In this document: one piece after another, positions 1 through 10,657 of the stretch
How positions within the stretch are numbered: position 1 is the first letter of the stretch
Layout of the letters: every line of letters starts with the position of its first letter
Origin: a bacterium
GTDB lineage: Bacteria; Zhuqueibacterota; Zhuqueibacteria; Oceanimicrobiales; Oceanimicrobiaceae
Direction of reading: 5' to 3'
Assembly (NCBI GenBank): GCA_046757165.1
Contig: JBHHXT010000170.1
Location: 1-10,796, forward strand
Length of the DNA stretch: 10,796 bases
Program-made: the position numbers and the translations under genes
Notes under the pieces: model-generated
Seen by the model: only the letters and a program-made list of their open reading frames with translations
Database searches by the model: none
What the model was told of the DNA's origin: nothing

Positions 1-33
1 ACGCAGAGCATGGGAACGAGAATCGAAAACTGA
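1..33 (+). CDS. Probable 3' end of an upstream gene of the same operon (partial, ...TQSMGTRIEN*)
   Basis: Frame 1 is open from base 1 to TGA at 31-33, followed by one base and then ATG at 35. The same TGA-N-ATG junction occurs at 3527/3529. Too short to assign a product. Confidence 0.45.
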   Translation, partial: TQSMGTRIEN

Positions 34-34
34 A

Positions 35-472
35 ATGGAAAACCCGTTTGAATTCTTGCGCATCGACCCGGCTGCGGACATTCACAAAATCACGGAAATC
101 TGTCAGCAGCGCAGCCAAACCGCGACAGAAGAAGAGCGCCGGCGGATCCAGGATGCGCTCATCGCCCTGCGGGATGAAAAACGCCGGCTGCAATTTGCGC
201 TGGGCACACCTCACAATCCGGAATATGAGGTCTCAGCCTGGGACCGGTTCATACAGGAGCACCGGCGGATGCCTTTCAAACAAAAAGATGTCATACCGCC
301 AGGTGTGAACAGCGCACAGCTCGAGGACATCGATCTCGCGCACCTGGAAATCCTGCTCAGCCAGCCTGATCCGGAGGAGCACCCCTTGAGCCGGCAAGAG
401 CTGCAGACACTGGCCGCGGCTTTTGATTTTGACAAGATGTTTCTGGATTATCTAAATCAGATCGAAGCATGA
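35..472 (+). CDS. J-domain-like protein lacking the HPD motif (145 aa)
   Basis: NPFEFLRIDPAAD resembles J-domain helix I (DPYEVLGV...AS). ATEEERRRIQDALIALRDEKRRLQF resembles helices III/IV (AEEKFKEINEAYEVLSDPEKRxxY). No HPD is present. Lies directly upstream of the GrpE-like and Hsp70 genes, with an ATGA overlap at 469-472. Confidence 0.7.
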   Translation: MENPFEFLRIDPAADIHKITEICQQRSQTATEEERRRIQDALIALRDEKRRLQFALGTPHNPEYEVSAWDRFIQEHRRMPFKQKDVIPPGVNSAQLEDIDLAHLEILLSQPDPEEHPLSRQELQTLAAAFDFDKMFLDYLNQIEA

Positions 473-978
473 AACAGCCTGAAGTATTCAAAATCACAGA
501 AGCTCCCAGGACCCTGCCGGAACACACCAGCGCTGGAACCTACCTGGTAGACCTGGTGCGTCTGGTGCGGGAAGGGGACCACGCAAAGCAGGCGGCTGAA
601 GAAAAAGCAACACGCCTGCAGGAGAAAATCGACACGATCTTGATTCAAGTTGCGGACGCGCTCTTTGACCTGCGCCGCATGCTGGAAAGGGACGATGAGT
701 CGAGGCTGACGGCGCGCATGCGGGCGCTCAGCCAGCCCCTGGAGGCCCTGCTGCAGAACAGCGGGGTCACCATCGAGGAGCCGACCGGGCAAATTCTGCA
801 AGAGGCGCTGCACCAGAAAGTCGAGCTGCACGGCTGGCTCCCCTCTGATGACACGGAGGAACGCGTGCACGAAACCATCGCGCCTATCGTTTTGCGCGCA
901 GGCCGGGTCATTCGGCCGGGACGGGTTATCGGCCTGTCCAGGAACGCAAACAACAAACCGGAGGCAGAAAGAGAATGA
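469..978 (+). CDS. grpE: Divergent GrpE-like nucleotide exchange factor (169 aa)
   Basis: N-terminal long helix (AEEKATRLQEKIDTILIQVADALFDLRRML), then LLQNSGVTIEEPTG...LHQKV...VHETIAPIVLRAGRVIRPGRV, matching the GrpE C-terminal pattern (L..GV..I...G..FDP..HEA...V.E....GY....RVLRPA.V). ATGA overlaps on both sides; adjacent to Hsp70. Confidence 0.8.
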   Translation: MKQPEVFKITEAPRTLPEHTSAGTYLVDLVRLVREGDHAKQAAEEKATRLQEKIDTILIQVADALFDLRRMLERDDESRLTARMRALSQPLEALLQNSGVTIEEPTGQILQEALHQKVELHGWLPSDDTEERVHETIAPIVLRAGRVIRPGRVIGLSRNANNKPEAERE

Positions 979-3527
979 TTGTAGACAAAGCCATCGGAAT
1001 CGATCTGGGGACCACCAACAGCGCCGTCGCTGTGCTCGACCTCACGGATACGAATCTCATCATCGCTGCGGACGAGCGGGGTCGCAATACCACGCCCTCG
1101 GCGGTCGCGGTCGACCCCAGGAACGGTGAGGTGCTGGTTGGCCGCGAAGCCCGCCGGCGCCGGGGCACCACGCCCGAGCCTGTTTTGTCCATCAAAAGAA
1201 AGATGGGCACCGCCGAGCGCGTTCGGCTGGGACAAGAAAAAGTCTCTCCGGTGCACGTCTCTGCGCTGATCCTGCGGGAAATGAGGCGCCAGATCGAAAC
1301 CCAGCTTACGCGCACCTATAACGACGTGGCGTTCGAGATCAAGCGGGCCATCATCACCAAACCAGCCTATTTCGGGTTTCAGCAAATAGAGCAGACACGC
1401 GATGCCGGGATGGCGGCGGAGCTGGAGGTGGTGGAGCTCCTGGAGGAACCGACGGCCGCAGCCATTTACTACTCCTGGAAGCATGGCCTGCAGGATGCCA
1501 CCTTCATGGTCTACGACCTCGGCGGCGGCACCTTCGATGTTTCGATCATCCGCCGAATCGCCGGCGAATACCAGATCCTGGGGGTCAGCGGAGACAACTA
1601 CCTCGGCGGCGACAACTTCGACCGCCTGCTGGCAAACCACATCCTGGACAATCTCATCGCCGACGGCTACGACCTGAAATTCGATACCAAAAACAGCCTG
1701 CAGGACAAACTGAACTTCGAAAAGCTGGTGATGAAGGCAGAAAGCAGCAAAATCGAGCTGAGCAGCACCGACGTCTACCAGCTCCACGCTGCGGATATCT
1801 TCTCGGACCGCCAGGGCCAAAGCGTCACGCTGGACATGCAAATCTCGGACAAAGAATTTGAAAGCCTGATCGCCAACGATATCGCCCGCACCATCCTGCT
1901 TTGTGGTGAAGCCATGGAACAGGCCAAACAGAAAGCCGACAAAGACGAACTCAAGATCGATCATATTCTCATGGTCGGAGGATCTTCCAAGATACCGTAT
2001 GTTCAGCGTCAGCTCGAGCAGGCGTTTGCCGCCAGGCCCCTTTTGGACGAGCCGGACACCTGCGTGGCCTTCGGCGCTGCCCTGCGCGCCGCGACCTTCG
2101 GCACAGCCATGACAGACGACAGCCGCAAAGTGCAGGTTTTCTTCCCCAAAGCCAGCGCGACGAGCCAGACTACTTACTCTCTCACCGGAGAGGTGAAAGC
2201 GCTCGACCCGGCGGTGGACCTGGAGAGCGCGACCGTTGAGGTCGTCAACCAGGTCTCGGGTGAAAAACGCGAAGAAGAGCTCGACGCAGACCACCGCTTT
2301 GTCATCGACAATCTCGCGTTAGATGAAGAGTTTACCAACAATTTCACGCTCAGAGTCCTCGACCAGGAGGGGCAGGAGCTGGTGCACCTGGCGCGCAACA
2401 TTGTGCAGAGTAAGACGCACACCAGCGCCGGTGGTGAGCTCTCGCGCGTCACGACCCTGGCGCGGCCCATCCAGCTCGAGATTTTGCGCGGCAACCAGGT
2501 GCGGAAGAAAGTGCTGCTGCGGCGCGGAACCTCGCTGCCCTGTGAAGAGAAGTTCAGACTGGCGACCGTGGACGAAAGCAATGAAATCCGCTTTCCGATC
2601 TACGACGAGCACATGCTGCTCAAAGAGGTCACCGTCAAGCTCGACCCGCCGCCCGCGATCGGCACGCAGATCGACTTCGTGATCCGGTGTGATGAAAAGT
2701 ACTTCATGACCATTCACGGCGACATCCAGGGCAAGAACTTTTCCGCCTTCATCGAACCGCCCCCGCCGCAGAAACCGCCGACACCAACGGACTGGGAGCG
2801 ACTGCAGCAAGAATTCGACGATGTGTGCCAGTCACTGCCCGAAGGTGAAAAGATCGTGTTCGAAGCCAGGCGGATGCGACTCGACCGCTCTCTGAAAGAA
2901 GCCTTCCAGGCCAACGACAGCCCCATGGTACAGAGCAAGATGGGTGAGTACCGTGACCTGGTTGAGGAGATCAAACTGCAAGCGAGCGAGACTCTGGAGC
3001 CGCCGTGGGAGGAGTTTATGAATGTTGCCAATGCCTGCAAGCAACTGGGCACCCTGGCAGCGCAAAAACTCCCTGGCTTCAAACCCGATGAATGGCAGCA
3101 AAATATCCAATTTCAGATCGACAAGGGGCAGGAAGCGTTTGCCAGCAAGAATCAGCAGTTGTATTCCCACTGCCACGAACGGCTTCTGAACTTTTATTTC
3201 TATCTGAAAGATCAACTGAAACCTGCCGCGCCGGTCGGCCAGGAGTCGGAACCGGATCCGGGCGCAGAAGCCATGCAGGTGCTGGGCCAACTGGCCAATG
3301 ATATCCAGAAGTTAGGCCAGGCGGCGCAGGCCAAGAATCGCCAGGACCTGGTCGAGCGGGTGCGGGAGCTGAACATGACGCTCAATCAGCTCTATCAAAA
3401 AGTTCCAACTGAACCGCAGGAAGTCATGACGCAAGCCAGAGTCATTGCGGCCGAGCTGAGCAAGATCGCGCAGCAATTGAAAATACCGGTCGACGCCATC
3501 GGGCTGGTGCAGGAGGTGAATCCCTGA
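975..3527 (+). CDS. Non-canonical Hsp70 family protein (850 aa); specialised DnaK paralogue, not housekeeping DnaK
   Basis: Hsp70 ATPase signatures: GIDLGTTNS, TPSAV, SIKRKMG, PAYF, EPTAAA, VYDLGGGTFDVSI, LGGDNFD, ILMVGGSSKIP, VAFGAA. SBD-beta-like region at aa ~491-594. GGAGG Shine-Dalgarno at 960-964. Confidence 0.95.
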   Translation: MIVDKAIGIDLGTTNSAVAVLDLTDTNLIIAADERGRNTTPSAVAVDPRNGEVLVGREARRRRGTTPEPVLSIKRKMGTAERVRLGQEKVSPVHVSALILREMRRQIETQLTRTYNDVAFEIKRAIITKPAYFGFQQIEQTRDAGMAAELEVVELLEEPTAAAIYYSWKHGLQDATFMVYDLGGGTFDVSIIRRIAGEYQILGVSGDNYLGGDNFDRLLANHILDNLIADGYDLKFDTKNSLQDKLNFEKLVMKAESSKIELSSTDVYQLHAADIFSDRQGQSVTLDMQISDKEFESLIANDIARTILLCGEAMEQAKQKADKDELKIDHILMVGGSSKIPYVQRQLEQAFAARPLLDEPDTCVAFGAALRAATFGTAMTDDSRKVQVFFPKASATSQTTYSLTGEVKALDPAVDLESATVEVVNQVSGEKREEELDADHRFVIDNLALDEEFTNNFTLRVLDQEGQELVHLARNIVQSKTHTSAGGELSRVTTLARPIQLEILRGNQVRKKVLLRRGTSLPCEEKFRLATVDESNEIRFPIYDEHMLLKEVTVKLDPPPAIGTQIDFVIRCDEKYFMTIHGDIQGKNFSAFIEPPPPQKPPTPTDWERLQQEFDDVCQSLPEGEKIVFEARRMRLDRSLKEAFQANDSPMVQSKMGEYRDLVEEIKLQASETLEPPWEEFMNVANACKQLGTLAAQKLPGFKPDEWQQNIQFQIDKGQEAFASKNQQLYSHCHERLLNFYFYLKDQLKPAAPVGQESEPDPGAEAMQVLGQLANDIQKLGQAAQAKNRQDLVERVRELNMTLNQLYQKVPTEPQEVMTQARVIAAELSKIAQQLKIPVDAIGLVQEVNP
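3511..3518 (+). promoter_or_regulatory. Shine-Dalgarno sequence for the TPR gene, embedded in the Hsp70 3' end
   Basis: AGGAGGTG ends 10 nt before the ATG at 3529. Confidence 0.8.
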
Positions 3528-3528
3528 C

Positions 3529-3993
3529 ATGGAACGTGACGCCAAACTGCTCTGTCCCCACCAGACGTGCGGACACCTGAACGCTTGGGACAAAACCGAA
3601 TGCGAGGCATGTGGTGCGGACTTGCGCACATTTGCCAGGCTGTATCTCATTCCTGCATTATTATATAATCAAGGGTTGCAGGCGTATCACGAGGGCGCGA
3701 CAGAAAAAGCGCTGCGCTACCTGCACCTGTCGAGCGAGCTCAATCCCAGAGACGTGCAGCCGCTGCTCGTGCTCGGCAAACTCTATGCGCAGCAAGAAAA
3801 GCTCGAGCTGGCGATGGACGTCTGGCTCGACGCACTCGAAGTCGATCCCAGCAACAAAACCGCCATGACCTGCTTGTATGAAGCGAAGAAACTGTTGACC
3901 GCGAAACGAACAAAGGCGAGCAAACCGAAACGCCGGGGCGACAAAAAATCGAAATCGCGTCGTCGCGCCAGCCGCGTGACTGCTCGCAAATGA
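3529..3993 (+). CDS. Zinc-ribbon + TPR protein with basic C-terminal tail (154 aa)
   Basis: CPHQTC...CEACG zinc ribbon. Two TPR motifs (YNQGLQAYHEGATEKALRYLHLSSELNP; LLVLGKLYAQQEKLELAMDVWLDALEVDPSN). Last 36 aa contain 18 K/R. Strong SD AGGAGGTG at 3511-3518. Confidence 0.88.
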   Translation: MERDAKLLCPHQTCGHLNAWDKTECEACGADLRTFARLYLIPALLYNQGLQAYHEGATEKALRYLHLSSELNPRDVQPLLVLGKLYAQQEKLELAMDVWLDALEVDPSNKTAMTCLYEAKKLLTAKRTKASKPKRRGDKKSKSRRRASRVTARK

Positions 3994-4037
3994 CGGAGAT
4001 AGGTGTGCATGTGGTTCCAATTTCGACTGCGCTTGTT

Positions 4038-4131
4038 GAACCCTTTCAGGGTTCGCCTGACATGTTCCTCTTTCCATCCCCAGGGTACGTCTTCGACGAA
4101 CCCTGGGCTTTGATGTCCGTCGCCTTCGGCG
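4038..4131. repeat. REP-like intergenic palindromic element (three hairpins)
   Basis: GAACCCT-TTC-AGGGTTC (4038-4054); CCCAGGGT-A-CGTC-TTC-GACG-A-ACCCTGGG (4079-4107); CGCC-TTC-GGCG (4121-4131). The hairpins are seen directly. Multi-copy status cannot be shown from this window. Confidence 0.7.
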
Positions 4132-4140
4132 TAAACAAAA

Positions 4141-4257
4141 AGCGAACTCGGGAATGAAATCATCTCATCGTCTTCGTCTTATTGTAACTCAAATCATTGT
4201 GGCGAAGTGAGAACGGGTAATGCCTAACTTAACTTAATCATCTATTGAGGGTGGATT
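4141..4257 (+). promoter_or_regulatory. AT-rich probable promoter/leader region for module 2
   Basis: Visibly more AT-rich than the flanking genes. TAACTTAACTTAA direct repeat with TAnnnT -10-like hexamers at 4225-4237. SD-like GAGGGTGG just before ATG 4258. No convincing -35 element found. Confidence 0.35.
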
Positions 4258-5541
4258 ATGAATGCTCGAAGAAAACTATTTCTAAACCTGGCGTTGCTCT
4301 CAGGCATGTTGATCGGCTGTGCAAGTCAAGCGCCACATACCACGCCGGTGACCTCTCCAAAGCCGGCGCCTCCGCCGGCAACGCAGGCCTGGGAGGACCA
4401 AATCTATTTCGAGGACAAAGAAACGGAAAAGCAATTTAGCTGGCAGCTCGAACCCAATGAACAGATGACCCTCCCTATGACCTTCACAACCAGGGGCAAG
4501 CTGGAGGTGGTGAATTATCACTCCAGCACCACGGACCTTTATTTCAACGAACAGGCCGAGGGGCGCCATTTCCGCTCAAAAAAACACAAACGGGAATTTA
4601 CCAAGAAAGTGACCCGAGGCATGCTCAACAGACGCTACTACCTGCATGTCATTTCCAACGCCACCACCCCAGCAGAAGCTGCTATCAAGATGGAATTCAG
4701 CCCGGAGCCCATTCAGGTCGTGAACAAGGAGCCTGTGGTGGTAACAAAACCCAAGGCAGCAGAAACGCGGCGCAAAAGGTCGAAGGAGTCTGCCACACCT
4801 CGCTCGCGAAAAAAAGAAAAGCGCCCGGCCAGACCACCGAAACCTGAACCGGCACCGCCGCCAAAACCGGCAGACGTCGCCAGCAAAAAAGATCCCTGCG
4901 CCACGGCACAGGATCTTTTCGACCGGGCGAAAACCGCCTACAACCAGGGGAATCTGGAGGAAGCCAGCCGCCTGGCCTCGACGGTCAGCGGCGACTGCCC
5001 GCAAATCCAGCGCGAAGCTGACGTTCTGGTCGAAGCGATCGCCAAACAACAACTGGAGCAGATGCAGAGCACCTTTCAGCGCATTGTCACGCTGGTGGAC
5101 ACAGACCGGTCCACAGAGGCGCGCCGGCTGCTGCCGAAACTCAGAAACTCGAGCGAGCTCTACGACCAGGCGCGCGAGCTGATCGAATCGGCCGAAAATA
5201 CCGGTGTGGTGCTCGGCAGTCTGGCGGTCAGCAGCGGAGTCCCGCGCAAAGGCCAGGGCGTGGACGCACGCGGGCGGTTGGCGCAAGGCCGGCAAACGAC
5301 CTATTCTCTCAACATCGAAAGCCGCGGCGACCTCGAGGCCATGGTGGATCTGGGCTACACCCTGCGTGGGGGCGGCCTGGAGCTCAAGGAGATCAAGCAG
5401 GTCAGGATCGGCAGTGAAAAGGTGGACAAACTGCGCTACGTCTGGCTCAACGTGAAACCAGGCACAAAATTGGACGTCACGGTGCGCAACCAGGACGGCA
5501 ACGCAAACTACGCCATCAATTTCTATCTCTATCCGAATTGA
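4258..5541 (+). CDS. Uncharacterised multidomain lipoprotein (427 aa)
   Basis: Basic n-region, hydrophobic h-region and lipobox LIG-C (Cys21). Then a Pro-rich tether, beta-rich domain, K/R/P-rich linker, TPR-like helical region with Cys214/Cys247, and a second beta-rich domain. Confidence 0.85.
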   Translation: MNARRKLFLNLALLSGMLIGCASQAPHTTPVTSPKPAPPPATQAWEDQIYFEDKETEKQFSWQLEPNEQMTLPMTFTTRGKLEVVNYHSSTTDLYFNEQAEGRHFRSKKHKREFTKKVTRGMLNRRYYLHVISNATTPAEAAIKMEFSPEPIQVVNKEPVVVTKPKAAETRRKRSKESATPRSRKKEKRPARPPKPEPAPPPKPADVASKKDPCATAQDLFDRAKTAYNQGNLEEASRLASTVSGDCPQIQREADVLVEAIAKQQLEQMQSTFQRIVTLVDTDRSTEARRLLPKLRNSSELYDQARELIESAENTGVVLGSLAVSSGVPRKGQGVDARGRLAQGRQTTYSLNIESRGDLEAMVDLGYTLRGGGLELKEIKQVRIGSEKVDKLRYVWLNVKPGTKLDVTVRNQDGNANYAINFYLYPN

Positions 5542-5557
5542 ATCACAGGAGAGTTGT

Positions 5558-7201
5558 ATGAACAGCTTGATCTTACACCGTCTCACGGGTGAAAAATCCG
5601 GTCTTTATTTGTTGCTGTTTTTGTCGTTGCTGCTGGTGAGCAGTGGCAGCGGATGCAGCGGCGATTCCGGCGCGAGAGAAATCTCGGTCGGCATTTCCCT
5701 GGAACCCAAGACCCTGAATCCCATCCTCGATTTGAACAACGAAGCCAGGCAGATCACCAGTTTGGTCTTCGACGGCTTGACAAATCCCATCGGATTGTCC
5801 GGCAATCTGCGCCAGGAGTACGAATACGCTCTGGCGCAAAAGATCGCGGAAACCGATCCACGCGACCGGCGGTTTCTGCGCGTCGAGCTGCGGCCGGGGA
5901 TCAAGTGGCACAACAACGTCGATTTTACCGCCGGCGACGTCCTGTTTACCTGGGAGGCCATTCACCAGAGCAACTCCCCGCTCAGGGTCCGGCTCGACCG
6001 CTTCGTCGACGACATCCGGGTGGTCGATGATCTGACCCTGACCATTCGGTTGCGGGAAGAACGCATCGCCGAGCGCGTGAAGGACATCCTGTCATTCAAA
6101 ATCCTGCCGCAGGTTTATGACCCGTCTGCCGGCGCAAGCGGGCACCTGCCCCGGAATCTCAACACGCAGTCCCCGATCGTGAGTCGGTTCAACTGGAAGC
6201 CGGTGGGCACCGGTCCCTACCAGGTCTCCGAACGCCCGGCCTCTTCTGAGATTTTTCTTTCCGCCAACCCGCTCCCGGTCCTGGGCGCGCCAAAGGTTCA
6301 AAAGGTGCAGCTCAAACGGTTTCCGGGATGGGACGTGATCACCAAAGCGCTGGCAGAAAAGAACATCAACCTGGCCGTCGATGTGCCGCCGGATTATTTT
6401 GCCCAGCTCGATAGGGAGAACCTGGCCAACCAGGTTTACTCGCCCTATAATTTCTATGTACTGGTCTACAATGTCTCCAGTCCGCCGCTGAACAGCCGGC
6501 GATTCCGGCGGGCGCTCACCCAGACGGTGAATCGCGAGCAGTTGGCCGCGACTTTTTTGCCCGACGAGCCCAATGTGGCGCAATTCATCAATGAAAGTAT
6601 CTACCCGTACAACTACGAGCACGTGCAGGACAACCCTGAGGCATTTCGCACCCGGCTCACCACCAACCCGGCTGCTGCAAAGCGGGCCTTGAGAGATTTC
6701 AGCGCCAGCAGCAAGAAGATTCGCTTGCTCTATTGCTCGCTCATCAACGGCGAAAACGCCAATCTGCTGGCCCAATCCTACAAACAAATGCTGTCAGCCG
6801 TCGGCGTGGAGGTCATCCTGGAAAACGCGCCCAACATCGCTATCTACCATTCGCGCCTGCGCAGTCGGGAGTTTCAGGTGGCCTTCGTTCTCTACGATGG
6901 ATTGGACCACTTTTATGAGCTGTACGACTTTTTCGAGCCTGATGGCAAAAAGAAACACTCCGGTTTTGTGCACCCGCGGCTGACCAATCTTTTGGCTGAG
7001 CTCAAACTGACGCTCGCCTTTGACGACGTCGGCCGATTGTCCGCGGAGATCCATCGCATCATCGACCGCCACGCGCCTGTCTGTCCGCTCTTTACGCTGC
7101 CGAAGCGGGCGTATTATTCACCCAATTTGCAGGATTTGATGATCAACCCGGAGTACTATTTTAATCAGTTGTATCTTGCAGACTTCTATCAGGGAGATTG
7201 A
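5558..7201 (+). CDS. ABC transporter substrate-binding protein, family 5 (OppA/DppA-like), probable lipoprotein (547 aa)
   Basis: EPKTLNP, LVFDGL, LRPGIKWHNNVDFTAGDVLFTW, VVDDLTLTIRL, PVGTGPY and RFRRAL...VNRE are all SBP_bac_5 patterns. Hydrophobic signal ends in SGSG-C. SD AGGAG at 5547-5551. Confidence 0.92.
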   Translation: MNSLILHRLTGEKSGLYLLLFLSLLLVSSGSGCSGDSGAREISVGISLEPKTLNPILDLNNEARQITSLVFDGLTNPIGLSGNLRQEYEYALAQKIAETDPRDRRFLRVELRPGIKWHNNVDFTAGDVLFTWEAIHQSNSPLRVRLDRFVDDIRVVDDLTLTIRLREERIAERVKDILSFKILPQVYDPSAGASGHLPRNLNTQSPIVSRFNWKPVGTGPYQVSERPASSEIFLSANPLPVLGAPKVQKVQLKRFPGWDVITKALAEKNINLAVDVPPDYFAQLDRENLANQVYSPYNFYVLVYNVSSPPLNSRRFRRALTQTVNREQLAATFLPDEPNVAQFINESIYPYNYEHVQDNPEAFRTRLTTNPAAAKRALRDFSASSKKIRLLYCSLINGENANLLAQSYKQMLSAVGVEVILENAPNIAIYHSRLRSREFQVAFVLYDGLDHFYELYDFFEPDGKKKHSGFVHPRLTNLLAELKLTLAFDDVGRLSAEIHRIIDRHAPVCPLFTLPKRAYYSPNLQDLMINPEYYFNQLYLADFYQGD

Positions 7202-7206
7202 ATAAC

Positions 7207-8004
7207 ATGGGTGCTTCTTTGTCTCGCATTTGTGGCCCTTCCTCGAAAGGGGTAAGCCTGGCGCTCTTCTGGCTCCTCCTGACCCTGCCTGCCGTGGCCG
7301 GCGCGCAGGGCTCGCCCACCGGTCTGACGGTCGAGATCACCAAAAACAACTGCCCGGTCTATGACCGGCCCGACCGGATGCGAAGCACCACCATCTTCAC
7401 GGTGCAGCCCGGAGACCGCTATCCGGTTCTGGATCTGCGGCACGTCGCCAACTGGCCCGCGCCATTCTACCAGATTCAATACGGCAACCCGGGAGAAGTC
7501 GGCTGGGTGTACGGCGGGTTCGTCAATGCCATCAAGCCCATACTGACCGGCGACACCGCCACCGACTCAGGCAGGAATGTCGCTCCACTTCATAAACGAA
7601 TCACTTCTTTGCTCGAAATGTACAACGATGAAAAGTCACAGCTCACCTCCGCCTACAATATCCGGCCGTTTCCGTCGCTCCACTTCGGGGCGACAGCCGC
7701 AGACAGCTCCGGCCTGTCCGTGGTCGATGGCAAGCTGACCCTGCCCCTGTTTTACGAAAGCGATGCCAGACGCCTGTACTTGCCCCGAGCGGACAAATTC
7801 CTGCTGCAGCTCATCATGCTCGAAAGTTTTAAAGAAGCGGCAGCGGGGGTAGAGCAGGTGGAACTCGCCCTCCACTTTCAAGATGGCAAGCCACCGGTTC
7901 GTTTGCTGTGTCGCTACCAGGACTGGCAGAGAGTCGGCCGCGCCAGCCTGGACCAGTTCTGGCGCATCCTCGAAGGAGAGGACAAAAACAGATTATGGCA
8001 ATGA
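7207..8004 (+). CDS. Secreted SH3b-domain protein
   Basis: ATG at 7207 preferred over TTG at 7198 because SD AGGGAG lies at 7191-7196. Signal peptide LALFWLLLTLPAVAGA/Q. SH3b pattern: VEITKNNCPVYDRP...TIFTVQPGDRYPVL...FYQIQY...GWVYGGFV. C-terminal alpha/beta domain unassigned. Confidence 0.8.
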   Translation: MGASLSRICGPSSKGVSLALFWLLLTLPAVAGAQGSPTGLTVEITKNNCPVYDRPDRMRSTTIFTVQPGDRYPVLDLRHVANWPAPFYQIQYGNPGEVGWVYGGFVNAIKPILTGDTATDSGRNVAPLHKRITSLLEMYNDEKSQLTSAYNIRPFPSLHFGATAADSSGLSVVDGKLTLPLFYESDARRLYLPRADKFLLQLIMLESFKEAAAGVEQVELALHFQDGKPPVRLLCRYQDWQRVGRASLDQFWRILEGEDKNRLWQ

Positions 8005-9242
8005 ACCACCAAGACAACAAAAGCGAAAAGGCGCAACAAACGCCGGTCGGGACAGGTGCCGCGCCATCGCGTGCCCCGGTGCCCGAAGTGCCAGCCCCGG
8101 CAAGTGCTCGGGAGGATCTCAGCGCGCTTGAACCGGGCGACACGCCCACCTCACAGAAGAACATCAAAACGTTCGTCTGGTTTCTGGCCAAGGAGGTGCT
8201 CGGCAAGACCGTGTTGTTGTGTTTGCTGGCAACGTTCGCGACCCACCTGCTCTTGATGCTCAACCCTAAGGCGAGCGCGGAAGAACGAATGACCCGCCTC
8301 ACCAGAATCGCAGACGCCAGCTCGGCCCGGAATGCTGGCGAAAAGCTGTTGCGGAGATACCTGGCAGGCGATGTTCATGCCAGGTGGATGAACTCCGATG
8401 GCGCGGAAATCGACCACCGCCGGCGCACGGTCATGAGCACCCTGATGACGCAAGACATGGCGGCCGCGCTGCAACGGGACCCCTCCATTGCGCGCAAAGA
8501 AAGCCGGATTGGACAACAAGAGTTTTTGTTTTATTTCGCCTGGCTGCGCGACCTGGTGACGGGCAATTTCGGCTACATCGAACAGGGGCTGGCGCTGAAG
8601 AGCGAATTGCTGGCACGCCTGCCCGTCACATTCGGTCTGGCCATCGTTTCCCTCCTTCTGACCGTGGCGCTCGCCCTTTACGGCGCCTTCTTTTACTATT
8701 TAAAAGAACGGCTGGCATTTGCCAAAGCCCAGGATTTGTCGTTCTACGCCATCTCATCGCTGCCCGCGTTCATCATCGGCTATCTCTTCCTGCGACTCTT
8801 CGGCGTGGGGGGCATCGGATCGCAGAATTTGTTGTTCCCGATCGTGACCCTGACCATCAGCAATGGCATTCTGGCCGAAATTCTGGTGGCGATGAAATCG
8901 AGCCTGCACAACGTCGCAGAGCACAACTACGTCGCTTTTGCCAGGTCCAAGGGTCTGAGCAACTGGCAAGTCCTGACGCGTCACATTTTCCGCAATGCGC
9001 TCATCGAGATTCTGCCGAAGGTGAGCCAGAAAATGGCCTTCATCGTCAGCGGTACCATCGTGGTCGAGAAGGTTTTCAGTATCAATGGCCTGGCGGACAT
9101 GCTGATCGATGGCCTGGGAAATCATGACCATGCGCGCGTGTTGATCGTCATTCTGGTGGCGACCATCCTGGTGCGCATCGGCACGGTGCTGGCCGATACG
9201 ATGCTCTATTTGTTGAATCCAAAGTACGGGGCAGGTAGATAG
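8001..9242 (+). CDS. Peptide/nickel-type ABC transporter permease (DppB/OppB-like)
   Basis: YFAWLRDLVTGNFG, RLPVTFGLA, SSLPAF, EAA-loop region YVAFARSKGLS...RHIFRNAL and GTIVVEKVFSINGL. Start placed at ATG 8001 (ATGA overlap with the upstream stop); ATG 7995 is an alternative. Confidence 0.92.
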   Translation: MNHQDNKSEKAQQTPVGTGAAPSRAPVPEVPAPASAREDLSALEPGDTPTSQKNIKTFVWFLAKEVLGKTVLLCLLATFATHLLLMLNPKASAEERMTRLTRIADASSARNAGEKLLRRYLAGDVHARWMNSDGAEIDHRRRTVMSTLMTQDMAAALQRDPSIARKESRIGQQEFLFYFAWLRDLVTGNFGYIEQGLALKSELLARLPVTFGLAIVSLLLTVALALYGAFFYYLKERLAFAKAQDLSFYAISSLPAFIIGYLFLRLFGVGGIGSQNLLFPIVTLTISNGILAEILVAMKSSLHNVAEHNYVAFARSKGLSNWQVLTRHIFRNALIEILPKVSQKMAFIVSGTIVVEKVFSINGLADMLIDGLGNHDHARVLIVILVATILVRIGTVLADTMLYLLNPKYGAGR

Positions 9243-9274
9243 GCTGTAGGACACCTGAATAGTGACGAAAAAAC

Positions 9275-10657
9275 ATGTTTAAAAGAAAGAAAAACAAGAC
9301 TGCGACTGGCAACGAGCCGAAAGAGGGCGGCGTCGACGCTACCCCCTCCATTGAGGAGGGTCATTCGGAGCTGACTGAAAAACCACAGCTAGATTATTTT
9401 ACGCCGGAGATGTTGCAGCCGCCGTCTGAACCGGACCAGGGGCCGGCGCTCGGGGATGGCGCGCACGACACCCTGCCCGGGCTTCTCAACAGAGAGCGGA
9501 GCCGCTTCTGGATGGTTTTTTCGTTCATTCTGTGGCCCGTCAGTCCGCTGTTGATCGTGGCTTACGGTTTGTTCACGAGGCTGCGTTCCAGGGGGACTGC
9601 CGCGCCGCGCAAGGTCTCGGTGTGGCAACTGCTGGGATTCTGGCTCTACCAACCCGTGTACTTGCTCAGCCTGGCCCGCCGGCGCCGGAACCTGCGCCTT
9701 GTGCTGGCCATTTGCCTGTTGTTGCCGCTCTTTCTGGCCACGTTGTGGGGGAGCTATGTTCTGATCTTTTCCAATTGGGATGATTTCGCCCGCGTGGGCC
9801 CCTCGCTTCAGTCACCGTTGCACCACCTCCCCATGGGCACGGACGGCCAGGGGCGCGGGCTGTTTACGCAGATCGCCGCTGGCGGTCGGCATTCGTATTT
9901 CACCAGCCTGCTGGCCGTGCTGTTTGCCGTCACCATCGGGGTCTTCACCGGCCGGGCCAGCGACAACCAGCGGCTGGACAGCGCGCTCGCCTTTGGCGCC
10001 CAGTTGATCGAGACCATCCCGCTGCTCTTTCTGTTCATGGTCCTGTTTGCGCTTTTCTCGGACTGGTCCAGCGGCCTGCCCGGCACCAACGCCAGAGACA
10101 GCTTGCGCATTTTGATCCTGGGGCTGGGTCTCGGCGTGAGCTTCTCCCCTCCTATTTTTCGCCTGATCCGCGATCGCATTCGACGATTCAAGAGCGAGGA
10201 TTTCGTCAACGCCACCAAGGCCCACGGCATCAGTCAATCAACGATCATCTGGCGCCATATCATCGGCAAGAACTCGACCTCGGACATCATGATCCTGGCG
10301 GCGCAGATCTGGGGGTTTGCCATGCTCATGGAGATCAGCCTGAGCTACGTCTTCAGCATTGGCTCGGCAAAACTCGGCGGTGAACCCTATGATAGCTGGG
10401 CGTGGATGCTGCTGACACCGGAGAGCAAGAATGCCTTGATCGGCAATGTCGACAGCATCGCGGTCAACTGGTGGGTCTGGTTTTTCCCGGCATTTTTCAT
10501 TGCTGTCACCATTGTCGGATTCTACCTGTTCGGCGAAGCGCTGAAACAGTGGCGCTCGCGGCATGAGCAATTCCGGTTGATGGAAAGGCCGCACAAAGCG
10601 GAGGAACTCTGGATGAACAACTTTCCTGTAAATGGGGGAAAGAAAACAACTTTTTGA
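9275..10657 (+). CDS. Peptide/nickel-type ABC transporter permease (DppC/OppC-like) with long N-terminal extension (460 aa)
   Basis: HLPMGTDGQGRGLF (HxLGTDxxGRD-like), IETIPLLFL, EAA-loop region FVNATKAHGIS...IIWRHI, EISLSY and WWVWFFP...FYLFGEAL. Confidence 0.92.
   Translation: MFKRKKNKTATGNEPKEGGVDATPSIEEGHSELTEKPQLDYFTPEMLQPPSEPDQGPALGDGAHDTLPGLLNRERSRFWMVFSFILWPVSPLLIVAYGLFTRLRSRGTAAPRKVSVWQLLGFWLYQPVYLLSLARRRRNLRLVLAICLLLPLFLATLWGSYVLIFSNWDDFARVGPSLQSPLHHLPMGTDGQGRGLFTQIAAGGRHSYFTSLLAVLFAVTIGVFTGRASDNQRLDSALAFGAQLIETIPLLFLFMVLFALFSDWSSGLPGTNARDSLRILILGLGLGVSFSPPIFRLIRDRIRRFKSEDFVNATKAHGISQSTIIWRHIIGKNSTSDIMILAAQIWGFAMLMEISLSYVFSIGSAKLGGEPYDSWAWMLLTPESKNALIGNVDSIAVNWWVWFFPAFFIAVTIVGFYLFGEALKQWRSRHEQFRLMERPHKAEELWMNNFPVNGGKKTTF

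Follow-up and report, generated by a model that had tools for sequence, protein, structure and literature searches.

The question raised by this locus is why a bacterium that already encodes housekeeping chaperones should also carry a row of genes for a J-like protein, a GrpE-like protein, an atypical Hsp70 and a zinc-ribbon protein with tetratricopeptide repeats (TPR), in which the residues that normally couple J-protein to Hsp70 have been changed. The row occupies the first part of a 10,796-nucleotide (nt) stretch of DNA, hereafter the window, which is the whole of contig C170 (JBHHXT010000170.1) in the 6.09 Mb, 531-contig assembly GCA_046757165.1 from a member of the Oceanimicrobiaceae (Zhuqueibacterota). 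Judged by its sequence, it is an undescribed specialised Hsp70 system, composed of known chaperone parts, in which the J-Hsp70 interface has been systematically altered. The operon may encode a private Hsp70 machine, that is, an ATP-driven clamp-and-release switch acting on a dedicated client (likeliest its own TPR scaffold or a linked effector), which has spread horizontally as a conflict or stress-signalling system, a reading whose chances of being right or wrong we hold to be about equal. The four genes of the window from which the argument proceeds are the following, with lengths in amino acids (aa):

35-472, plus strand: J-like protein, 145 aa, with a J-domain fold over residues 1-60, a two-residue loop replacing the histidine-proline-aspartate (HPD) motif, and a poorly ordered C-terminal half.
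469-978, plus strand: divergent GrpE-like protein, 169 aa, a likely nucleotide-exchange factor (borderline PF01025 match; weak GrpE matches in the PDB).
975-3527, plus strand: atypical Hsp70, 850 aa, with a nucleotide-binding domain (NBD, 1-375), an inserted all-beta domain (~377-478), a beta substrate-binding domain (SBD-beta, ~499-593), three predicted three-helix bundles (604-835) and a hydrophobic C-terminal tail.
3529-3993, plus strand: zinc-ribbon-TPR protein, 154 aa, with two TPR repeats and a basic tail (Pfam TPR; 12-member alignment).

An earlier interpretation made from the letters alone (the sequence-only reading) had proposed four complete genes with these identities, and all four open reading frames (ORFs) were recovered as described, together with the ATGA overlaps at 469-472 and 975-978 and the 1-nt gap at 3527/3529 that join them. 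The 145-aa protein gives no Pfam match; however, a profile of its family (41 aligned rows) has the J-domain of DNAJC8 as its best PDB profile match (E 3.6e-4), and the predicted model places helices at 4-8, 16-29, 32-46 and 48-57 in a J topology with a two-residue loop. In fold searches the best match to this model had a Z of 9.0 (root-mean-square deviation, rmsd, 2.5 over 63 residues; Foldseek E values were not significant), and 18 of the 19 rows at Z of at least 5 are titled as J-proteins or chaperone complexes or else fit residues 1-63 likewise. A four-helix J fold is thus supported by profile and model, and the proposal of a J-like protein without HPD was borne out, as HPD stands at the canonical helix II-III loop in 0 of the 41 rows; three rows carry HPD elsewhere, after helix IV. 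Conserved positions of the J-like protein include L45, R51 and P59. A fusion of J and Hsp70 genes, suspected from long myxobacterial ORFs, was rejected, the J-like genes being separate ORFs. The 169-aa protein passes the PF01025 threshold narrowly (26.3 bits against a cut-off of 25.8); none of five homologues scanned singly reaches E 0.01, and the two best PDB matches of a 13-member profile are both GrpE, at weak scores (E 0.04 and 0.11). The 850-aa protein matches PF00012 up to residue 375 (E 3.5e-70). In the 154-aa protein the TPR assignment comes from Pfam, and the four cysteines of the zinc ribbon reach at least 90% conservation in an alignment of 12 homologues, which share the two TPRs and often the basic tail.

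A housekeeping set is found elsewhere in the genome, in keeping with the expectation that this Hsp70 would not be the only DnaK: a canonical dnaK lies on contig C21, an hrcA-like gene (recognised by eye), grpE and a dnaJ whose product retains HPD lie on contig C17, and a ClpB-like gene is also encoded. The window Hsp70 reaches only 247 bits against the DnaK equivalog model TIGR02350, for which the cut-off is 823, and with the canonical set located elsewhere the window operon is therefore an extra system. Over the NBD the protein shares about 32% identity with DnaK, and its nearest Atlas entries are unnamed Hsp70 clusters of 828-858 aa. In a quick tree of NBDs (96 rows) the family forms a single clade apart from DnaK (58 rows; SH-like approximate likelihood ratio test, SH-aLRT, 99); one further sequence, L075, passes the score cut-off, yet the tree places it outside the clade, with a very long branch.

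The anatomy of the Hsp70 indicates which of its functions may have been kept. The predicted model (predicted local distance difference test score 93) is built of the NBD, the two beta domains and the three three-helix bundles listed above, and it superposes on ATP-state BiP (5e84) over 459 residues spanning positions 1-596 (rmsd 3.5, Z 46.9). A profile of residues 486-680 matches the SBDs of BiP and DnaK (E 1e-5 to 2e-4) and also that of HscA. On profile and model together the second beta domain is a substrate-binding domain, and it is predicted to dock on the NBD as in an ATP-state Hsp70 despite the domain inserted between them. The inserted domain itself gives only weak Ig-like (immunoglobulin-like) fold matches (best E 0.07) and scattered Pfam beta-sandwich matches. 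The equivalents of DnaK D8, K70, E171 and D194 are invariant in 108 aligned rows, and that of T199 is T in 106 of 107; the corresponding residues of the window protein are D10, K74, E158, D181 and T186.

The surface that should meet the J-protein has been altered. In DnaK, R167 and Q378 bond the HPD aspartate, while the linker bonds the HPD histidine (PMC8215388; here and below, papers are cited for those parts of their text that were available). The R167 equivalent is R in a single row of 107 (E154 in the window protein), and among the 17 rows that share the operon type of the window, 15 have E or D at this position and 15 have R at the Q378 equivalent. The R151 equivalent is likewise R in only 5 of 107 rows, and mostly I, V or M; DnaK R151 is, we presume, an allosteric relay residue. 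The position of the DVLLLD linker is interrupted by the inserted domain of ~110 aa, and NBD and SBD are not joined directly. HPD and the R167 equivalent have thus been lost as a pair, which supports the suggestion in the sequence-only reading that the module is insulated from the housekeeping chaperones. The loss of R167 is not unique to this family, as it is also missing from both Hsp70s of another private chaperone cluster that this genome carries. That cluster, on contig C105 (L138:9659-15802), encodes a GrpE, an Hsp70 of 522 aa, a J-like membrane protein and an Hsp70 of 666 aa with a vWA-like C-terminus, and lies outside the window Hsp70 family in the tree.

These same residues bear on whether the Hsp70 processes a client at all. 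It could instead be a nucleotide-state sensor or scaffold, with the HPD-less J-like protein as an inhibitor or structural subunit, for which mitochondrial Pam16 is a model. The lack of HPD from the canonical loop in every J-like row, the rarity of R at the R151 position and the interrupted linker all lean in this direction, and many DnaK derivates have been suggested to have lost activation by J-proteins (PMC13580251). However, the catalytic residues are invariant, SBD-beta persists, with a predicted docking like that in ATP-state BiP, and nucleotide cycling is implied by the GrpE-like gene that the non-myxobacterial loci still carry; we consider a sensor or scaffold of this kind very unlikely.

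Beyond the helical bundles, a motif of G followed by two hydrophobic residues lies no more than 26 residues from the C-terminus in 70 of the 96 members of full length, where shuffled tails gave a mean of 16 and a maximum of 25, the pattern having been chosen after the tails were viewed and the related sequences not being independent. In the model of the window protein it forms a short strand. Within the family, six members of ~1,000 aa (P0012, P0025, P0032, P0034, P0074 and P0077) carry a related insert of more than 100 aa inside the NBD, after an SIKR motif, and tandem pairs of family Hsp70 genes occur at seven loci (L012, L141, L144, L151, L153, L155 and L161).

How far the operon extends is a second part of the question, for which the features flanking the four genes are needed:

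1-22, no strand: half of a palindromic intergenic repeat, not a gene end (37 genome matches; an extra 28-nt tandem copy in run X3).
4047-4107, no strand: inverted repeats 3' of the operon, a hairpin or another dispersed repeat.
4258-5541, plus strand: probable lipoprotein, 427 aa, of no recognised family, possibly cargo (same position in L148).
5558-7201, plus strand: family-5 solute-binding protein of an ATP-binding cassette (ABC) importer, possibly cargo (PF00496; 59% identity to the L148 gene).
8001-9242 and 9275-10657: ABC importer permeases.

The sequence-only reading had taken the first bases, with a 33/35 gap, as the end of a probable fifth gene and had called the cluster self-contained; neither view held. 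Bases 2-20 belong to a palindromic intergenic repeat, presumably of the REP-like (repetitive extragenic palindromic) kind, that has 37 matches across the genome at up to three mismatches, both strands counted. In one of four sequencing runs examined, bases 1-22 are doubled just upstream at a distance of 28 nt, a tandem spacing that is not a multiple of three, and they are thus not a gene end; the TGA at 31-33 closes only 10 visible codons. What precedes the J-like gene is more probably a TPR gene of 779 aa, which stops 19 nt short of the end of contig C376, and the operon likely continues upstream. The upstream genes were located by searching profiles from homologous loci against the contigs of the genome: the TPR gene on C376 is preceded by a Ser/Thr kinase gene, and a Clp-type AAA+ gene lies at the end of contig C84, which overlaps C376 by 55 nt. 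No end overlap was found between C376 and the window, and contigs from the four sequencing runs reach 223-251 nt upstream of window base 1. The join of C376 to the window is suggested by locus L148, the closest relative among the loci listed below, in which a TPR gene abuts the J-like gene and whose contig is the best match both for the TPR protein and for six window proteins (38-59% identity). By this comparison the window is likely the 3' half of a longer operon spread over three contigs, in the order Clp-type AAA+, Ser/Thr kinase, TPR scaffold, J-like, GrpE-like, Hsp70 and zinc-ribbon-TPR, and the contig break at its start was likely caused by the palindromic repeat. The proposal of a four-gene module accordingly stands as to the order, which recurs, but falls short as to the number of genes. 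The gaps between the upstream genes (L137:9700-10000, L136:1264-1660 and window 1-22) all contain palindromic or short direct repeats, and the gap after the AAA+ gene contains, in addition, an apparent remnant of a four-helix-bundle gene.

In the upstream kinase, the HRDLK and DFG motifs are intact in 8 of 8 copies. In the AAA+ protein, all eight aligned operon copies are without a middle domain and lack the glutamate of the first Walker B motif, and the first pore loop is lost, while the second ring is intact. The IGF-type loop used for ClpP docking was not seen at the aligned position, where the C30 protein of the same genome has GIGF. Against the ClpB model the protein encoded on C84 scores 308 bits (cut-off 1232). 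As the middle domain is the contact of ClpB with DnaK (PMC8209680), its lack indicates that the operon AAA+ is not a ClpB, and a role in the disassembly of complexes may be proposed from its sequence. This bears directly on an alternative scenario, in which the operon is an accessory kit for general stress proteostasis, where, as with DnaK-ClpB or mobile stress-tolerance islands, a private Hsp70 and an AAA+ disaggregase rescue aggregates when the cell is stressed by heat or chemicals. Every part is indeed a chaperone homologue, SBD-beta has been kept, Hsp90-like genes lie nearby in L013 and on C84, and the AAA+ protein does match ClpB, ClpA, ClpG and ClpK models, weakly and far under their cut-offs. 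However, this AAA+ is missing precisely what couples ClpB to DnaK, along with the first Walker B glutamate, the first pore loop and any visible IGF-type loop, and the genome already has the housekeeping set. In addition, giant TPR scaffolds, a kinase and a zinc-ribbon-TPR protein are, as a matter of general knowledge, foreign to general disaggregases. Such a kit is in our view unlikely.

Divergent from the Clp-type gene, contig C84 (L172:1-14752, minus strand) carries a run of genes with few family matches, which resembles a MoxR-vWA ternary system adjoining the chaperone operon. It encodes an AAA+ protein similar to the second ring of Clp (743 aa), a MoxR-like AAA+ (336 aa) and a vWA-like protein (719 aa), the last two labelled by eye and neither giving a Pfam or NCBIfam match, as well as proteins of 368 and 596 aa without assignment, a probable zinc-finger anti-sigma/TPR protein, a further unassigned protein of 360 aa and an Hsp90-like protein (725 aa). 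A CHAT-like identity considered for the 360-aa protein was unsupported.

To what degree these genes travel together was assessed over a set of 87 listed loci, to which the locus counts below refer. A search with the C-terminal half of the Hsp70 matched 170 clusters (50% identity clusters, E up to 0.001). A motif scan of species genomes gave at least 121 matches, 80 of which had flanks; 1 duplicate, 20 loci of another family (mostly ~530 aa, from cyanobacteria and Ruminococcus) and 3 without an Hsp70 match were dropped, leaving 56 family members. A narrower metagenome scan gave 29 loci, 28 of them over the score cut-off, and three same-phylum loci complete the set. The order J-like, GrpE-like, Hsp70, zinc-ribbon-TPR is complete in 17 of the 87 loci besides the window, the carriers being Actinomycetota, Ktedonobacteria, same-phylum relatives and metagenomes. 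GrpE-family matches occur at 25 loci, 21 of which have the J-like gene, while the other four end too early; a TPR gene lies upstream in 19 of those 21, and 11 of the window-type loci have a kinase gene upstream, while 10 have the AAA+ gene there. The co-conservation implied by the sequence-only reading thus holds in that the genes travel together across genomes, but the GrpE-like and zinc-ribbon-TPR genes are not universal. A reduced form is present in a myxobacterial clade (39 loci), consisting of a 410-aa relative of the TPR scaffold's C-terminal part, a J-like gene, the Hsp70 and a helical-repeat protein, with a GrpE-family match in 0 of 39; its J-like gene was found in 32 of 39 by a distance rule, with four of the others truncated, two having it elsewhere in the locus and one having none. 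A third gene order, consisting of the Hsp70, two TPR genes, an HPD-less J-like gene (~170 aa, by eye) and grpE, was seen in L070 (a planctomycete record) and in L156 and L160 (metagenome), two of these three also having a second, shorter Hsp70.

The distribution speaks to a further scenario, that the system helps to assemble one dedicated target, either a cellular or developmental structure or a membrane complex adjacent to it, akin to HscA or HscC with their narrow housekeeping clients, and plays no part in conflict. The myxobacterial form would suit such a factor, being one clade with lineage-conserved flanks, and many of the named carriers are, by their record titles, multicellular or large-genome bacteria. 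The window and L148 moreover share the downstream lipoprotein and ABC solute-binding genes, their proteins being only ~40-60% identical. However, the downstream genes vary between loci, and the system is sporadic: it was found in at least 2 of 301 Streptomyces genomes and at least 47 of 201 Polyangiales genomes (two weakly), both lower bounds, as 13-20 candidates were scored per genome, and within the host phylum it was found in 0 of 20 genomes of the same family and 3 of 166 others, a second scan returning the same three and one weak match. Copies from this phylum are also scattered in the quick tree, one of them among Chloroflexota and Actinomycetota sequences. A narrow assembly role consequently appears improbable. 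In L038, a contig titled Melainabacteria, the operon is nearly sister to the copy from Actinospica, reflecting recent transfer or a binning error. No relative was found among viral contigs.

The reading of the operon as a conflict or stress switch draws on its neighbours. A conflict-type gene adjoins the zinc-ribbon-TPR gene in 7 of 18 loci with a called neighbour (17 and the window), a raw count with no background rate. These neighbours are TIR genes (L014 and L141), a kinase-NB-ARC-TPR gene (L144), a ZorAB-like pair with two Hsp90-like genes after it (L013) and, at L016, L026 and L068, EACC1 and CHAT (caspase-like) genes arranged as a convergent pair. EACC1 has been described as a pore-forming death effector activated by proteases (PMC12642450). 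The CHAT proteases of these three loci (L016:5519-7555, L026:5257-7473 and L068:12425-14566) have Clp-N-like repeats at their C-terminal end, which bear a weak similarity to the N-terminus of the operon AAA+ (E 5e-4; Pfam Clp_N), a hint of like-with-like coupling. From its gene content and neighbours, the system likely works as a conflict or stress switch, and the anti-phage or conflict role raised in the sequence-only reading receives support from those seven loci only, the window's own downstream genes giving none.

Several observations weigh against this reading. The other 11 of 18 loci, including the window and L148, have no conflict-type gene adjoining the operon, and the three loci with the EACC1-CHAT pair are all actinomycetes and may represent one event. 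The wider flanks hold mostly ordinary metabolic genes (a scan of 91 proteins, and of 39 among the 80 metagenome neighbours that lacked a label), the operon core contains no nuclease or toxin domain, and the four window proteins and the TPR protein give no match to PADLOC 2.0 at E 0.001; the PADLOC matches of the kinase and the AAA+ are at the level of domains only. Neither kinase nor AAA+ is seen within the 9.4 kb visible upstream at L037 and L042, and no J-like or GrpE-like gene was detected at L144. The myxobacterial form looks vertical, as one clade with partly conserved flanks. Finally, the join between C376 and the window is inferred rather than assembled, and the TPR protein of this genome corresponds only to the C-terminal part of scaffolds of 1,400-1,650 aa.

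The region 3' of the operon adds some detail on the window itself. Across the inverted repeats read depth climbs and contigs break at 4079-4166 in the sequencing runs examined, and a scan for promoters and terminators over 3900-4320 found nothing above shuffled controls on the plus strand. Both the window (4258-10657) and L148 (5544-8067) carry an orphan lipoprotein gene and an ABC solute-binding gene at this side. The lipoprotein is 41% identical to its L148 counterpart over the C-terminal half; elsewhere, one weak match was obtained in 166 other genomes of the phylum and no other homologue in a further search.

The proposed clamp-and-release switch could operate as follows. The J-like protein may trigger or target the Hsp70 through a new interface, and because that interface appears to be new, housekeeping DnaJ would be unable to drive this Hsp70. 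The GrpE-like protein would then reset it. The TPR proteins may serve as scaffold or client, the zinc-ribbon-TPR protein may be the adaptor or sensor that the sequence-only reading proposed, and the hydrophobic Hsp70 tail could be a docking or pseudo-substrate motif. The kinase could mark the complex, and the AAA+ could dismantle it through its Clp-N repeats, perhaps after phosphorylation; this disassembly might gate an output that differs between loci. We infer these interactions, and the biological role, from domain content and gene order. A bolder version, possible but on balance doubtful, is that the system represents a class of chaperone-gated immune or cell-death switches in multicellular bacteria, in which an HPD-free J/Hsp70 pair restrains a giant TPR scaffold, and the kinase and a Clp ATPase with one active ring dismantle it to release swappable outputs (TIR, NB-ARC, a ZorAB-like motor or an EACC1-caspase).

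Comparison with characterised systems places the operon apart from each. With DnaK-DnaJ-GrpE and ClpB it has in common an Hsp70 that comprises NBD and SBD-beta, along with J-fold and GrpE-like proteins and a Clp ATPase of two rings. However, the HPD, R167 and R151 equivalents have been lost, a beta-domain sits in the linker, the helical C-terminus is longer, the AAA+ has no middle domain and its first ring is degenerate, there are additional TPR scaffolds, a kinase and a zinc-ribbon-TPR protein, and the whole is sporadic, on top of a housekeeping set. HscA-HscB and HscC-DjlB/DjlC are likewise specialised Hsp70s with their own J-proteins, but HscA and HscC are of 550-620 aa and are described as GrpE-independent (PMC8215388), whereas the window family is of ~850 aa, often with its own GrpE-like gene, and its J-like protein has no HPD. 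The window Hsp70 scores 241 bits against the HscA model (cut-off 709), and it is set apart from HscC by length and context, no HscC model being among the matches. Kaur et al. (2020) predicted conflict operons in which HSP70-GrpE is tied to GTPases and FNIII proteins (PMC7159879). These GAP1-N2 GTPase-centric systems, which occur in multicellular bacteria, also contain an Hsp70 (in some cases two Hsp70 genes), GrpE and a component of DnaJ or TPR type, but are defined by DO-GTPase, GAP1 and FNIII-repeat proteins, whereas the window-type neighbours are a Clp-type AAA+, a kinase and TPR scaffolds. No DO-GTPase/GAP1-N2/FNIII cluster was seen among the conserved neighbours at the listed loci or when some of the flanking genes were scanned with Pfam, with no direct GAP1 profile run; two supplementary text files of PMC7159879 contain neither a GrpE nor an HSP70 string, and its full neighbourhood tables could bear on novelty. 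EACC1-caspase modules are related through the pair that adjoins the three actinomycete loci and through C-terminal Clp-N-like repeats as in the operon AAA+, but there a lidless DnaK-like domain, with 50% identity to DnaK, forms one protein with the protease (PMC7159879 and PMC12642450), whereas the window-family Hsp70 stands alone, and no EACC1 pair adjoins the window itself. The available parts of PMC11090510 and PMC11019930 concern other Hsp70 types. The sequence-only reading had allowed that the cluster might match an already characterised system; its four proteins match no PADLOC model, and the operon is not described in the full-text literature searched, in which coverage of subscription papers is slight.

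The finding bears first on how an Hsp70 is driven. HPD is treated as essential to J-protein action in every system tested (PMC8215388), and here HPD is gone along with the Hsp70 residue that contacts it, yet across several phyla the ATPase site stays intact and the two genes stay paired, which offers a direct test of whether an Hsp70 can be driven without HPD. The system also bears on the open question of what role the many bacterial DnaK derivates play (PMC13580251), and its function is testable, as carriers with culture-collection numbers exist in Ktedonobacter racemifer DSM 44963 and Streptomyces litchfieldiae DSM 44938. If the defence reading is true, it would add a chaperone-gated class to bacterial immunity, and the restrained-scaffold version of it would provide a bacterial counterpart of the control that TPR proteins, Hsp70 and Hsp90 exert over immune receptors in eukaryotes.

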